Shown here: one piece after another, positions 884 to 26,069 of the stretch | Position numbering within the stretch: position 1 is the first letter of the stretch | Layout of the letters: each line of letters opens with the position of its first letter | NCBI GenBank assembly: GCA_041690215.1 | Contig: JAWLHQ010000008.1 | Coordinates: 4,170 to 68,169 of the forward strand | Reading direction: 5' to 3' | Origin: Rhodothermales bacterium | GTDB taxonomy: Bacteria > Bacteroidota > Rhodothermia > Rhodothermales > DASSAV01 | Length of the DNA stretch: 64,000 nucleotides | The notes under the pieces: model-generated | Seen by the model: only the letters and a program-made list of their open reading frames with translations | The model's database searches: none | Told to the model about the DNA's origin: nothing | Position numbers and translations under genes: made by a program

Positions 884-2569
884 ATGACTACGCTCGTCGT
901 TCCCGGTGTGCGGGTAGAAGCCCGCTTTGACGTGTTACCCCCGCTGCCTGCTCCGGCAGGAATCCTGGGCGTGGTAGGAATCGTGGACCGGCCGCCGTCC
1001 CGCGGCACGATCGGTGTAACCAAGCCCGGCGAGGTCCGGCAGCTGCTCGGACCCGGCACGGAAGTCAGCATGCCGGAGCTTATGCAGGCGCTTGCAAACG
1101 GAATCAGCGAAGCAATCGTTGCTCCGGTGGTCGGCGGAAGCTCGGCGTCCGTGACGCTGGATAACCCTGACGGCGATTCTGCCCTGCGATTACGATGCCG
1201 ATCGAACGGTGCATGGGGCAACGCGCTCCGGGTGGACGTTCGTACGACGGCCAATGCGAGCGGTGAGTTCGTACGCGCCACGATTCGCCTCCTCCTGGGC
1301 GGTCAGGTCGTCGAAGAGTTCCCCGACCTCCAGATTGCAGCCGGTCAGCCGGACGACGTATTCGAGGCAATCAACGCCCGCTCGCGCTACGTGGTCGCTA
1401 TTGATCCAGGCTTCGAGGACGCCGTTCCCGCCAATGGCACGTACGCCTTCTCCGAGGATGCTACGACGGTGAACGTGCCGCGAGAAGGTGCGGCAGCGGA
1501 CCTCTTTCAGCTTTTCGCGGCTCCAGGGGTTGACACGACGGGACTCTCCGTCACCATCGACGTGAACGAGGACGACGAGATCAGTCTTCAGGTCTTTCAG
1601 GGGGGCTTACAGGAGTCGTTCAGCAGGCTGGTGATGAACCCGGACGACGACAATTACCTGCCGTACGTGTTGCTGGCCCAGAGCCGTTTAATCCGCGTCC
1701 GACCACTGGCTTCGCAGGCGAACGCGCTGCCCGCAGCGACCGCCGGGCCTGTAGCCTTCGAGAACGGGACCTCGCCCAACGTACAGGCCTACCGCGACGC
1801 CATCGATCTGCTCAGCGAGGATCCCCGTATCGATCTCGTACTGGCCTCCATCGAACCGGGCCGGGTTGTGGCCGAGGTTCGGCAGATCCACCAGGCGCTC
1901 GTCGCTCACTGCGTGGCCATGGCCGACAACGGTGCGCCTCGCATCGCCTTCGGGTCGATCACGGCGGCCGAACAGGACGATCTGGACCAGATCCGTGATC
2001 ACGCCGCGAGCGTACGCAACCGGCGGTTCGTGCTCGTGGCGCCAGCCGGCGCCGAAGGGGCCGTGGCCGGTGTTATCGGGCGACTCAGGCCTCATTTCTC
2101 AGCCACCTTCAAGGCGGTGCCCCTTCACGGTATCCAACCGGCCTCGTTCCGAGAAAGCCAGCTTAACCGGCTGCTCGGCCCGAGCACGAACCTGCTCGTC
2201 GTCCAGCAGCGGGCTGGGCGCGGTGTCGTCGTGCTGCGCGCCATAGATACCACGGGTGACCAGATCTCCGTCACCCGTGTAGCAGACCAGTGTATTCGCG
2301 AGGCGAAGGCCATTGCAGAAAACTTCATCGGGCTGCTCAACACCGAGGAAGCCCGGATTGCCCTGCGCGAACAGATCGTGGCGACGTTCACGCGCATGGA
2401 GAGGGATAACGCCCTCGTGCCCTCCACGGATGGCAGCGATCCGGCCTTCCACGTCGACGTCTATTCGACCCAGCAGGACTTCGCGCAGGGCATCGTCCGT
2501 ATCGACATCGCCGTACGGCCGGTCCGCGCTATCGACTACATCTATGCCACCATCCGCGTCAAGAACTGA
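884..2569 (+). CDS. Contractile tail sheath protein (CIS/phage sheath family)
   Basis: 561 aa. N-terminal VPGVRVE resembles the sheath PGVYVE motif; C-terminal GIVRIDIAVRPVRAIDYIYATI is typical of sheath C-domains. First gene of a tail/baseplate operon. Confidence 0.9.
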   Translation: MTTLVVPGVRVEARFDVLPPLPAPAGILGVVGIVDRPPSRGTIGVTKPGEVRQLLGPGTEVSMPELMQALANGISEAIVAPVVGGSSASVTLDNPDGDSALRLRCRSNGAWGNALRVDVRTTANASGEFVRATIRLLLGGQVVEEFPDLQIAAGQPDDVFEAINARSRYVVAIDPGFEDAVPANGTYAFSEDATTVNVPREGAAADLFQLFAAPGVDTTGLSVTIDVNEDDEISLQVFQGGLQESFSRLVMNPDDDNYLPYVLLAQSRLIRVRPLASQANALPAATAGPVAFENGTSPNVQAYRDAIDLLSEDPRIDLVLASIEPGRVVAEVRQIHQALVAHCVAMADNGAPRIAFGSITAAEQDDLDQIRDHAASVRNRRFVLVAPAGAEGAVAGVIGRLRPHFSATFKAVPLHGIQPASFRESQLNRLLGPSTNLLVVQQRAGRGVVVLRAIDTTGDQISVTRVADQCIREAKAIAENFIGLLNTEEARIALREQIVATFTRMERDNALVPSTDGSDPAFHVDVYSTQQDFAQGIVRIDIAVRPVRAIDYIYATIRVKN

Positions 2570-2579
2570 CGAGTGAACG

Positions 2580-25800: not shown

Positions 25801-26069
25801 AACCGCACTTCCGGCTGAACCTGCCCTCCGGGACGGGGCCCTTCCAGGTCACCCGCGGCAACACCCTCACGCTGGTTTGCGATGCAGGCCACTCACCCGT
25901 TGCCGATGAGGTAGTTGTTACCCCATCAGATGATATCACGGTAGCGGTCTCCGGAGCCGAAATTCGACTCGACGTGGCTGCCAGCGCCGCCCTCGGCGTG
26001 CGGCGCGTCGCCGTGCGCAGTCAGACCGGTACGAACGTCTGGGCGGCGCGGTCCTTCGAGGTGATCTGA
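19812..26069 (+). CDS. RHS-core-containing giant protein with N-terminal mini-RHS and ~1750-aa C-terminal cargo (HExxH motif)
   Basis: YD-like repeats in aa ~20-250; RHS core RRLDPRVGAFDAPDP...HDPVGRTDPTG (DPTG = aa 334-337); HELYH at aa 1233-1237; several hydrophobic segments. Confidence 0.8.
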   Translation: MTTIPTVSPAQARPKHVYLLVPGTDAVVTYHLDATGRLERLTCAGRTYLHRERGECIYGDGWVRVREAALERLILRRVETLGECWLEAYRWDEERRLVLVDGVAIERDERGRVTSCRSSDTAWEYDYDAVGLRCIRGPFGERRIESGENGRPVRVSEGARSYALSYDADGRRTGEPDPPANWNRDSFGRLWTVTAPDGRILATYLWDGFACLGRIDGPPGEPLAAVFSLDPSLTPVRVITRSGYTRIPRDAYGEALLAYPGVPGLFGGAHHEGRVHYMTRRLDPRVGAFDAPDPLHGGPEDLRRSNGYRGPLPVDPPEYGAYAVCRHDPVGRTDPTGAISWAAGAFSTLSSLTWSSQHVLASTLAVELLNFLLALFRGELGRWADKEVVSSRWLGEWGFRFDPVGLETININVGRAWTYYRYVWARSEDFNALSSFRVFVPEGPFRPTLYGTLLHAVPTDEGDNRFTPFVLRGSGIEDPRIPARAPGWTRAGGAAEPVIPGSRTPHFPSGGLHFIPINNHGPKQGRIIEVEPTGVLAAGRMEDREVLIIDRTGLTMVTSGTELFIIGASRTIRKVTVDTAISIEGKTRIRMTENPAGLARTNLLVRGVGAAQSSETLSMGTQNDRLNVAEGASTHRYFPQDPIVFSQGGTEVGAALVDRLEARLEVNAVLDAGTGKPPLRVEVLDASPGSGGTVSVVDPGTLNFGTGTAPDAGTALLINGTAAVLVTEVLGGGERRIAPALDASITGDVPWLTMRRARTLGAWDGQGGTTQLTYTPEESGRAPNTGYIGIRDDEGRLRQVRAVSARIYDELIIAAGPLPGNTGTPYTVERRAFADPNESGAQMETVTALVLDENPAPDWNPGGGARRPVLQLNPLGAATLNAAAGPTVISGATLSGTTLTATPVAGRTPTPAQMVLLQDPSGSVSDPAAVLVRDVRLTATLDRDITVGTSDLEVVPLEVGSSSYQAEALAADWLRLLPVAYEVNAAGNVVSSGGSPITHPVHMPRFEAGELVEVLWTDGGGNTVRHAFRVGERQGTTLRLEAGPPGVDVSTAASELRVRLLVPSDPDTGSSRLGREGAISAGNPRELTLKVWAPNALSAIQSRQTPIAIVKGRHGQADAAAMPALVSAVTSMAVELYSVPATLSGTSTVDVRLPILSGNPRYESDYTLEGKDVLFANGNPFTSHTDPVYAILFSPAPGDERQASGTFSGGNVMIPQDASESWELSRYESLETHELYHTRHISILGPLLLSPLPKVIWELPLLLSDSNPELPPFSSYVPATIIQQGGNLVLEIPDFHGIGFDKGSRVEVSQNAGSVSLTLSTREDNRFIIQPSPQLRPGKAYVRLDRRSDEVANFFKDLGVGLADVDTLGGLMSTVVGPILAFIPWLIALVVHHSQGGSGTRWWLTFHPARVPDPAQPARIQVDKDKFSAQVHDIVEIRVRGVSVDNAVTAVHPNGIIELRDVPDHEGEDRTLQIARVASNDPLNFASTAALNHMGFGWMRWLFDPYGQLQFRTDPNMDQTEGVVWDVFRRIMRWGFSSTSWTLFPFGFFFFDNLLKQGTGNGHMSIMEQSASEESGDLYSPLGRFRDIPEYVGDIGRYWYWPNSRNETLIDVGGSKQDAPGVHTRDLLRIIPALDKSGTGSAEPNQGAQIDAGVTDAALHLPDLLYIKGIQNPFTHTGTGPDSFQVSGTGIIPFSPFLERTLGTYVAFCRPSEYRATVVNGISGGAEGRQMTEEGDATLGIFSVRQPLYFDRTGDKGVRDVMVRVGGKTVANGDTVDAILCQRLRISVEPNGTRRYSATVLQPGDGPVIRLRGDLELQAQTTAGEEPVEITRDHLVAPYGIKENTARAWPQVHLRETLQIPVRAFSVRVTDTVPVRTVADPTAPPVAGPLKPGAEVFLLVPARMQGLPRQQQTYAAATTPAPSRHPQPDIDVDATATTAHAEYLADGGALRLAFSADDPPEEAVDLTWEIDVRASQPTGAGTTETISGTVRATLRLEPHFRLNLPSGTGPFQVTRGNTLTLVCDAGHSPVADEVVVTPSDDITVAVSGAEIRLDVAASAALGVRRVAVRSQTGTNVWAARSFEVI

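Follow-up and report, generated by a model that had tools for sequence, protein, structure and literature searches.

A probable stand-alone contractile injection system of an uncatalogued lineage, with a giant core protein encoded at its 3' end, in a Rhodothermales bacterium

Organization of the locus

The subject of this work is a cluster of genes for a putative contractile injection system (CIS) in a Rhodothermales bacterium (genome of 4.6 Mb in 34 contigs, 99.6% complete), which we analyzed over a stretch of 64,000 nucleotides, hereafter the window, corresponding to positions 4170-68169 of contig JAWLHQ010000008.1. An earlier note on this DNA had described 17 tightly packed + strand genes at 884-26069, and this layout was confirmed: 17 co-directional open reading frames (ORFs), all intact, span window positions 884-26069 (~25 kb), mostly with intergenic gaps of -10 to +45 nt, the exceptions being ~128-197 nt before g13 and 65 nt before g14. 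The island that they form has a GC content of 63-66%, as against 54-59% over the remaining contig, or 64% as compared with 56-59% in the surrounding sequence, and neither paralogs of its genes nor a second copy of the cluster were found elsewhere in the genome. The genes are designated g01-g17 in 5' to 3' order and are given below in window numbering, with lengths in amino acids (aa); the starts of g06, g07, g10, g11 and g13 were placed downstream of the longest-ORF start on the basis of their orthologs.

884..2569, +: g01, tail sheath, 561 aa; PHROG 279 at 2.5e-21 over the full length, PF17482 at 29.8 bits
2580..2963, +: g02, tail tube, 127 aa; AlphaFold2 (AF2) fold and Foldseek
3008..4261, +: g03, orphan, Pro/Ala-rich, 417 aa; no family match
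4261..4926, +: g04, tube-baseplate adaptor, Mu gp43/Dit-like, 221 aa; PF19512 DUF6046 at 33.1 bits, Dit_like, PHROG 184 baseplate hub
4930..5946, +: g05, baseplate hub, gpD/Mu gp44/gp27-like, 338 aa; PF05954 at 28.9 bits (cut-off 30.1), Gp44-like_2nd, N-terminal part of NCBIfam VgrG_rel
5937..6608, +: g06, central spike, gpV/gp5 OB-fold and beta-helix, 223 aa (orthologs mostly 219); PF04717 at 28.4 bits (above cut-off), PHROG 9992 at 2.9e-9, NCBIfam VgrG C-terminal
6634..7032, +: g07, PAAR tip, 132 aa; PF05488 at 33.9 bits
7062..7562, +: g08, gp25-type sheath initiator, 166 aa; PHROG 975 at 1.1e-17, PF04965 at 25.9 bits, Sheath_initiator
7559..9316, +: g09, baseplate wedge, gp6/gpJ-like, 585 aa; PHROG 6 at 1.7e-44
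9318..10691, +: g10, orphan, 457 aa; no family match, candidate gpI/gp7-like wedge partner from position only
10729..11229, +: g11, conserved small protein, 166 aa; PHROG 5417 (unknown function) at 1.9e-18
11269..12261, +: g12, fiber/baseplate-associated protein, 330 aa; weak helical-family and CarboxypepD_reg-like matches only
12459..13940, +: g13, coiled-coil fiber-like protein, 493 aa from the inferred start; many coiled-coil matches including fibritin-type and tape measure protein (TMP) PHROGs
14006..14896, +: g14, orphan, 296 aa; candidate cap/terminator from size and position only
14893..16506, +: g15, orphan, beta-rich, 537 aa; no match in any library
16503..19766, +: g16, helical acidic protein, 1087 aa; weak TMP PHROGs (305 at 1.8e-8), CIS13_fam at 0.05, candidate tape measure
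19812..26069, +: g17, giant core protein, 2085 aa; RHS-like N-terminus and HELxHT(x)Q motif

The assignment of sheath, tube, hub, spike, PAAR, gp25 and baseplate J functions to the cluster, and the claim that hub and spike are encoded by separate genes (g05 of the gpD type, g06 of the gpV type), were borne out by PHROG, Pfam and NCBIfam profile searches and, for the sheath and tube, by AF2 and Foldseek; searches of this kind had been called for in the earlier note. The contractile core comprises a sheath, a single tube, a gp43-like adaptor, a gpD hub, a gpV spike, a PAAR tip, gp25 and a gp6/J wedge, to which nine further lineage-specific core genes are added. In a tblastn comparison with 50,697 phage records g09 matched phage 'baseplate J' genes at 24-26% identity, and g11 had no match in the same set. 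The description of fiber-like proteins held in part: g12 and g13 are indeed helical or coiled-coil proteins, but the fiber label itself goes back solely to coiled-coil matches. Over the g13 region (window 12001-14000) the GC content falls to 58%, and this drop, together with the length variation of g13 orthologs (429-583 aa), looks like the mark of a recombination-prone specificity module.

Several genes lie outside the reach of existing family models. No Pfam, NCBIfam or PHROG family matches g03, g10, g14 or g15, and searches of g10, g14 and g15 against the PDB by sequence and profile returned nothing meaningful. When 62 orthologs of g03, g10, g11, g12, g14, g15 and g16 were scanned with Pfam, only unspecific helical matches were recovered. 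The position of g03 is that in which phages place the chaperone and tape measure. The N-terminus of g14 has a resemblance to Afp16/Pvc16 that can serve as a lead only, as it is unsupported by Pfam and PHROG scans, and a profile of g14 retrieved no Afp16/Pvc16 chain in the PDB.

Conservation and spread of the cassette

Hundreds of relatives of the sheath are present in metagenomes at 64-79% identity, and a survey of one genome per species yielded 57 loci, of which ~39 are close (sheath 58-71% identical) and syntenic in their downstream genes wherever the available sequence is long enough. For 16 genomes the fetched locus was joined with a further 20 kb for comparison of the whole cassette. All 17 genes occur in the same order and at nearly the same sizes in 16 of these 16 genomes, with sheath identities of 58-79% overall, and the sole gap in this synteny is a PAAR gene that was not found in one Phytomonospora genome (g07 being present in 15 of the 16, at 62-78% identity). 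Conservation extends well into the genes that lack recognizable homologs: g10 (38-51% identity), g11 (49-60%; 165-181 aa), g12 (44-69%), g14 (36-48%), g15 and g16 are each present in all 16, and g03 was recovered by tblastn in 10 of them at 28-42% identity, with orthologs of 375-549 aa. The size of g16 is 1068-1111 aa, save for 1188 aa in one genome and 987 aa in an error-ridden Chloroflexia metagenome-assembled genome (MAG); the corresponding lengths are 213-219 aa for g06, about 575 aa for g09 and 1926-2503 aa for g17. In the same Chloroflexia MAG g10, g14, g15, g16 and g17 are in pieces, most likely on account of long-read indel errors rather than decay.

The cassette is carried by monoderm and diderm bacteria of at least ten phyla: Acidobacteriota, Verrucomicrobiota, Pseudomonadota (Alphaproteobacteria), Thermodesulfobacteriota (Syntrophus buswellii and Desulfobacterium), Nitrospinota, Actinomycetota (Mycolicibacterium senegalense, M. 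agri and Phytomonospora), Gemmatimonadota, Chloroflexota, Ignavibacteriota, a 'delta' MAG, Rhodothermota and others. In a phylogenetic tree of the sheath these phyla are intermixed with strong support, and the copy from the window groups (100/98) with sequences from Rhodothermaceae, Hyphomicrobiales, Ignavibacteria, Kapaibacteriota and Alphaproteobacteria. Conversely, all of the 60 genomes searched from the genus, family or order of this bacterium lack the sheath, which, along with the GC-rich composition of the island, indicates that the island arrived horizontally. The flanking genes are unrelated among the 16 genomes, with no conserved extra gene, and in the 10 kb upstream and the ~6 kb downstream of the cluster no head, ATPase or lysis gene is seen in any of them. 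Given that synteny is maintained in distant genomes amid unrelated flanks, and that the close relatives of this bacterium lack the sheath, the cluster is best explained as a transferred and selectively maintained unit rather than a prophage remnant; the preservation of the sheath at 58-79% identity across phyla likewise points to purifying selection on a functional unit. Genome comparison therefore indicates that the cassette is a fixed, stand-alone unit of 17 genes that has been exchanged horizontally across at least ten phyla.

The idea of a decaying prophage that has lost its head and lysis modules could draw on the fact that the best profile matches of the sheath, gp25 and J proteins are to PHROG families. 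We give it hardly any weight, as none of the 17 frames is disrupted, 16 of 16 distant genomes have the genes in the same set, order and sizes amid different flanks, none of the copies has head genes nearby, and the level of sheath identity points to purifying selection. Among viral contigs in IMG/VR there is one of 10.5 kb with a cluster of a sister type, which has only 169 bases upstream of the sheath, too little to show a head. This sister lineage is itself headless and is seen in Zoogloea and Myxococcus, with ~40% sheath identity, a different middle section and no homolog of g17. Directly upstream of its sheath, as in Zoogloea sp. LCSB751 (4947-9862), are genes for a protein with a TIR domain and for an nSTAND1 NTPase-WD40 protein, and a PG_binding_1 protein is encoded within the cluster; the Zoogloea homolog of g04 additionally matches DNA_circ_N.

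Affinities of the sheath and tube

To place the system among contractile machines we relied on profile searches against the PDB, on marker families of extracellular contractile injection systems (eCIS) and on a ranking of the sheath by fold. All Foldseek matches of the AF2 model of the sheath (predicted local distance difference test score, pLDDT, of 78) are tail sheaths. The best is the CIS sheath of the haloarchaeon Halogeometricum borinquense (PDB 9EZM; E 7e-18), with the sheaths of phage 812, phiCD508, Lin1278, P1 and T4 at E 1e-14 to 1e-17, and those of the Anabaena tCIS, PVC, Afp and AlgoCIS behind the phage sheaths at E 1e-5 to 1e-7. By its modeled fold, then, the sheath is nearer to the myophage sheaths and the haloarchaeal CIS than to Afp/PVC. 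At the sequence level, g01 has no tblastn match among the 50,697 phage records and retrieves nothing by phmmer or with a 21-sequence profile from PDB chains, which include Afp, PVC, AlgoCIS, Anabaena tCIS, Streptomyces CIS, haloarchaeal CIS and many phage sheaths. With respect to the eCIS criterion of a sheath of the Phage_sheath_1 family, related to Afp2-4/Pvc2-4, only PF17482, the C-terminal domain, matches it. Among 1.84 billion representatives clustered at 50% identity it matches 293 proteins, 82 of them at 1e-30, and such searches indicate that the sheath clade and its sister groups are small and isolated from the mainstream sheath families.

The tube protein g02 presents a comparable picture. 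Its AF2 model (pLDDT 87.7) matches the tubes of phage 812, phiCD508, diffocin, PVC and Afp in Foldseek at prob 1.0 and template modeling (TM) scores of 0.72-0.76, and it matches no Pfam or NCBIfam tube family and nothing meaningful in sequence and profile searches of the PDB. It is the only tube gene detected in the cassette, which upholds the earlier statement that there is one short tube; a second tube paralog among g04, g11 and g14 was ruled out, as hhalign comparisons of these with the tube profile were all negative. That the cluster belongs to a distinct CIS lineage, as had also been proposed, is largely supported, with sheath and tube set apart from the characterized eCIS by the PDB searches, the marker families and the fold ranking; no description of this lineage was found in the searchable literature.

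The gene order sheath, tube, gp43-like, gpD, gpV, gp25, J and fibers is that of Mu/P2/PBSX tails and of R-type tailocins such as pyocin R2 and diffocin, and these also share with the cassette the single short tube and have in phage 812, phiCD508, Lin1278, P1 and T4 the near neighbors of its sheath fold. Where it departs from them is in having no head, neck, terminator or lysis genes, in its nine added lineage-specific genes, including the giant RHS/HExxH protein, and in its distribution across phyla. These resemblances could be read as those of an R-type tailocin that kills relatives by depolarization and needs no effector, with g14-g17 being structural or fiber/assembly proteins. Its phage-like parts list (single tube, split gpD/gpV, no ATPase), the closeness of the sheath fold to myophage sheaths and the match of the tube fold to the diffocin tube would all fit, but the cluster and its flanks contain no holin, endolysin or spanin cassette. 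A tailocin has its origin in phages of the clade to which its host belongs, whereas here a near-identical architecture extends across at least ten phyla with no relative of the sheath among 50,697 phage records, and the fixed 2085-aa HExxH/RHS protein and PAAR tip are features of effector systems. A tailocin is hence, in our estimate, distinctly improbable.

Comparison with extracellular and type VI systems

For the eCIS we took as criteria the core set of Chen 2019 (PMC6899500) and Geller 2021 (PMC8213781), together with the dbeCIS/eCIStem lineages I-II. Like Afp, PVC and AlgoCIS, the present system is a headless chromosomal cassette with a sheath, tube, spike, PAAR, gp25 and gp6/J; it likewise has a large helical tape-measure candidate and a cargo-like gene at its 3' end, what appears to be a DUF4157-like HExxH domain on the last gene, GerE/BTAD-like regulators upstream in several relatives, and a horizontal spread across phyla. 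Regarding those regulators, inspection of the loci by eye rather than by a scan showed the upstream neighbor to be GerE-type response regulator-like in two relatives and SARP/BTAD-like in two others, and both kinds have been reported upstream of eCIS operons (PMC8213781).

The differences are as follows. The eCIS have an AAA+ protein (Afp15), whereas none is encoded among the 17 genes; two tube paralogs (Afp1 and Afp5) rather than one tube gene; a fused VgrG-like hub/spike (Afp8) in place of two genes; and a LysM-bearing Afp7 where this cassette has a DUF6046 adaptor. Neither a Pvc16_N/DUF4255 cap nor a T4_gp19/CIS_tube family is detectable, and the sheath is undetectable by profile against all solved eCIS sheaths. 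Furthermore, the cargo-like gene is fixed and ~2000 aa long, with an internal rather than N-terminal HExxH. The eCIS markers Phage_T4_gp19/CIS_tube, Pvc16_N, AAA and CIS_TMP were detected neither in the genes of the window nor in the 62 orthologs of the orphan genes; a genome-wide search for Pvc16_N/DUF4255 (PF14065) likewise gave nothing at E<=1, though the control was also silent. The mycobacterial eCIS of eCIStem (Mjls_0919-) is a different, Streptomyces-type locus. Type VI secretion systems (T6SS) differ in having a TssB/C pair along with TssJLM and ClpV, as against a single phage-type sheath gene, and no T6SS families of NCBIfam or Pfam occur in the cassette beyond generic VgrG/PAAR domains. 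The system would work in the manner of an eCIS; in sum of its parts, the structural core looks phage-like, with a Mu/P2/PBSX order and a split hub/spike, and the 3' end looks eCIS-like.

The absence of head, lysis and T6SS genes and of an ATPase from the cluster had been noted earlier and holds on a wider search. Capsid, portal, terminase, integrase, lysis and T6SS genes are lacking from the cluster, from the rest of the 64-kb window and from the 4.2 kb between the window and the left contig end, and the same DNA is devoid of AAA+ genes. Head genes or an ATPase adjoining the cluster, named in the earlier note as what would overturn its view, were sought on this contig and in the 16 other genomes and did not turn up. 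One ORF of 655 aa in the window has two Walker A motifs; it belongs to a group of CysD-like and CysN/CysC-like genes at 44100-47127 (+), and it is not an AAA+ ATPase of the CIS.

The giant protein encoded by the last gene

The earlier note had the cassette end in a giant RHS-type cargo, and of this the RHS-like character stands for aa ~1-340, while the remaining ~1750 aa are conserved and belong to a fixed core gene rather than to a classical cargo. Scanned whole, g17 gave almost nothing. Scanned alone, its aa 1-350 matched PF05593 RHS_repeat at 32.7 bits (cut-off 22); the YD_repeat_2x model TIGR01643 reached 18.7 bits (cut-off 15.8), and the RHS-associated core TIGR03696 15.1 bits, below its cut-off of 32.5. 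The RHS-like part extends only over aa ~1-340, where it ends in DPTG. In an alignment of 56 homologs aa 200-350 are the best-conserved part of the protein, with D283-P284, D293-P294 and D334-P335-T336-G337 identical in at least 93% of them, and this could be a relic or a functional RHS core motif. As in the RHS/YD toxins (T6SS Rhs effectors and Tc-type BC cocoons), there are thus YD/RHS repeats in the first ~340 aa, a conserved ...DPxxG...DPxG...DPTG block like the RHS-associated core, and an association with a PAAR-tipped spike. Unlike in those toxins, the repeat region is several-fold short of cocoon size, the core is followed by ~1750 conserved aa instead of a short variable toxin, no immunity gene is adjacent, and the PAAR is a separate protein.

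Beyond the RHS-like module, further conserved islands lie at aa 1201-1250, around the motif HELxHT(x)Q, and at aa 1551-1600. The motif is at aa 1233, reads HELYHTRH in the copy from this genome, and is found in all 56 homologs as well as in the Mycolicibacterium and Nitriliruptorales orthologs. The sequence from about aa 1400 onward is conserved in most orthologs, with only the last ~85 aa poorly so. Two hydrophobic segments are found, one after the DPTG block (aa 358-377) and one at aa 1365-1394. Orthologs from Cellulomonas are named 'eCIS core domain-containing' or 'DUF4157' by NCBI, and PF13699 falls on their HELTHTVQ at 22.3-27.1 bits (cut-off 22), exactly on the motif; it matches weakly in 7 of 25 other ortholog segments. 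Proteins with DUF4157 are associated with eCIS (PMC8213781) and are secreted by the haloarchaeal CIS (PMC11566945). A tblastn match confined to the N-terminus had raised the possibility of a polymorphic g17 in Mycolicibacterium and Nitriliruptorales, and this was rejected, as the orthologs there are full-length with the HELxHTxQ at the same position. Taken together, the conserved ~1750 aa, the invariant motif and the lack of a conserved downstream gene imply that g17 is neither a classical RHS toxin nor an exchangeable cargo. It is instead a fixed core gene, in which we recognize what appear to be a miniature RHS-like module and a distant relative of the DUF4157 domain of CIS cargo.

The haloarchaeal clade IIa CIS ('archaeal T6SS') of H. 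borinquense (9EZM; PMC11566945) has both the best Foldseek match to the sheath and DUF4157 proteins as its secreted substrates. It differs in having a full cis1-16 set, including an ATPase and a six-helix membrane anchor, and its sheath is undetectable from the present one at the level of sequence profiles. Rather than being released, the apparatus might be a cell-associated or cytoplasmic CIS like the Streptomyces CIS-Sc, the Anabaena tCIS or the haloarchaeal T6SS. In that case g17, through its hydrophobic helices, would tie the baseplate to the membrane of the producer, and the system would fire from within the cell or into the producer itself, as might happen during stress-induced death. 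Such an arrangement would account for the lack of lysis genes from the cassette and its vicinity in 17 genomes, for the two to three hydrophobic segments of g17 and for the lack of a conserved immunity gene, and it would agree with the membrane-bound nature of the best structural match, although the Foldseek margin of H. borinquense over the phage sheaths is small. It is nonetheless unlikely, since the cassette has no dedicated multi-pass anchor like Hbor_38620 or CisA, its PAAR and its fiber-like proteins of variable length suggest recognition of an external target, and the same cassette serves monoderm and diderm hosts.

A probable stand-alone system with a built-in payload

We consider it probable that the cluster, known here from its genes, encodes a stand-alone CIS of an uncatalogued lineage with g17 built into it. 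Assembly would begin at a baseplate of g04-g11, with g10 and g11 as further wedge parts, which nucleates the tube; tube length may be set by g16 as a ruler, a role suggested by the constancy of its size and by a location close to the 3' end like that of Afp14. The sheath would polymerize around the tube up to a cap that might be furnished by an unrecognized terminator, for which g14 and g15 are candidates. On binding of the target by the fiber-like g12/g13, contraction would push the spike, with its PAAR tip, through the envelope. The single conserved 2085-aa g17 would serve as the payload; its RHS-like N-terminal module probably docks on, or releases from, the spike or tube, with release possibly involving an RHS-type autoproteolysis after DPTG, whereupon the HExxH domain and hydrophobic helices might act in or on the target membrane. 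We propose that no dedicated loading ATPase is needed because the cargo is fixed and built in. By analogy with eCIS, the particles would probably be released by lysis of the producer through unlinked functions.

Several observations weigh against this proposal. For the cap, the tape measure and the wedge partner, position and size are the only grounds of assignment, and seven of the core genes have no detectable homology. The negative results for AAA+ and lysis genes cover linked DNA only, so that an unlinked gene elsewhere is possible. As to g17, PF13699 is not detected in the copy from the window and the scores of its orthologs only just attain the threshold; the RHS-like region would have to be far longer to form a cocoon, and the RHS-core model stays below its cut-off. 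No immunity gene downstream of g17 is conserved across the 16 genomes, which speaks against its being a classical antibacterial toxin; the protein might instead have a structural role or serve as a membrane anchor.

A bolder proposal, which we put forward tentatively and as a possibility rather than an expectation, is that the cassette represents a third major branch of stand-alone CIS, beside the Afp/PVC-type eCIS and the tailocins, in which every particle has an obligate, non-exchangeable payload of ~2000 aa and which works unchanged across at least ten monoderm and diderm phyla, including mycobacteria. From its sequence, g17 would then combine an RHS-like docking/autoprocessing module with a DUF4157-like metalloprotease and membrane-inserting helices, and the non-exchangeability of the payload would render a loading ATPase and a canonical cap dispensable.

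To our knowledge, CIS biology and the engineering based on PVC rest on few lineages, all of which use an AAA+ ATPase and N-terminal signals for swappable cargo. A widespread lineage with no ATPase, recognizable cap or second tube, but with one fixed giant effector-like protein, would show a different logic of loading and delivery. It would also give a function to seven orphan protein families and extend CIS to Mycolicibacterium, Syntrophus and Nitrospina; catalogs anchored in Pfam probably miss the system. Because cultured strains exist for several of the carriers (Humitalea rosea, Pararoseomonas baculiformis, Cellulomonas spp., Phytomonospora endophytica and Syntrophus buswellii), this can be put to a direct test.

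Genomic neighborhood

Between the left contig end and the window, the 4.2 kb of sequence encode RmlD, a LuxR-type response regulator, a TonB plug protein and a GlcNAc 2-epimerase. The TonB-dependent receptor ORF (2054-2578, -) has the Plug domain only (174 aa) and is probably a truncated gene. No tRNA lies near the cluster, and the genes that flank it in this genome are cellular. On its right flank are a RES/Xre toxin-antitoxin pair, an FG-GAP protein, an esterase and an FAD oxidoreductase, with the CysD/CysNC-like genes and ABC exporters further on. The RES-domain toxin and Xre-like antitoxin (window 26115-27053, -) directly follow g17 and are not kept beside the cassette in other genomes; the pair may belong to the transferred island. 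In the 865-bp gap before the sheath gene there is an ORF of 104 aa (window 501-815, +), which has no family match and is probably not a gene, and a sigma-70-like site is present at window 315-343.

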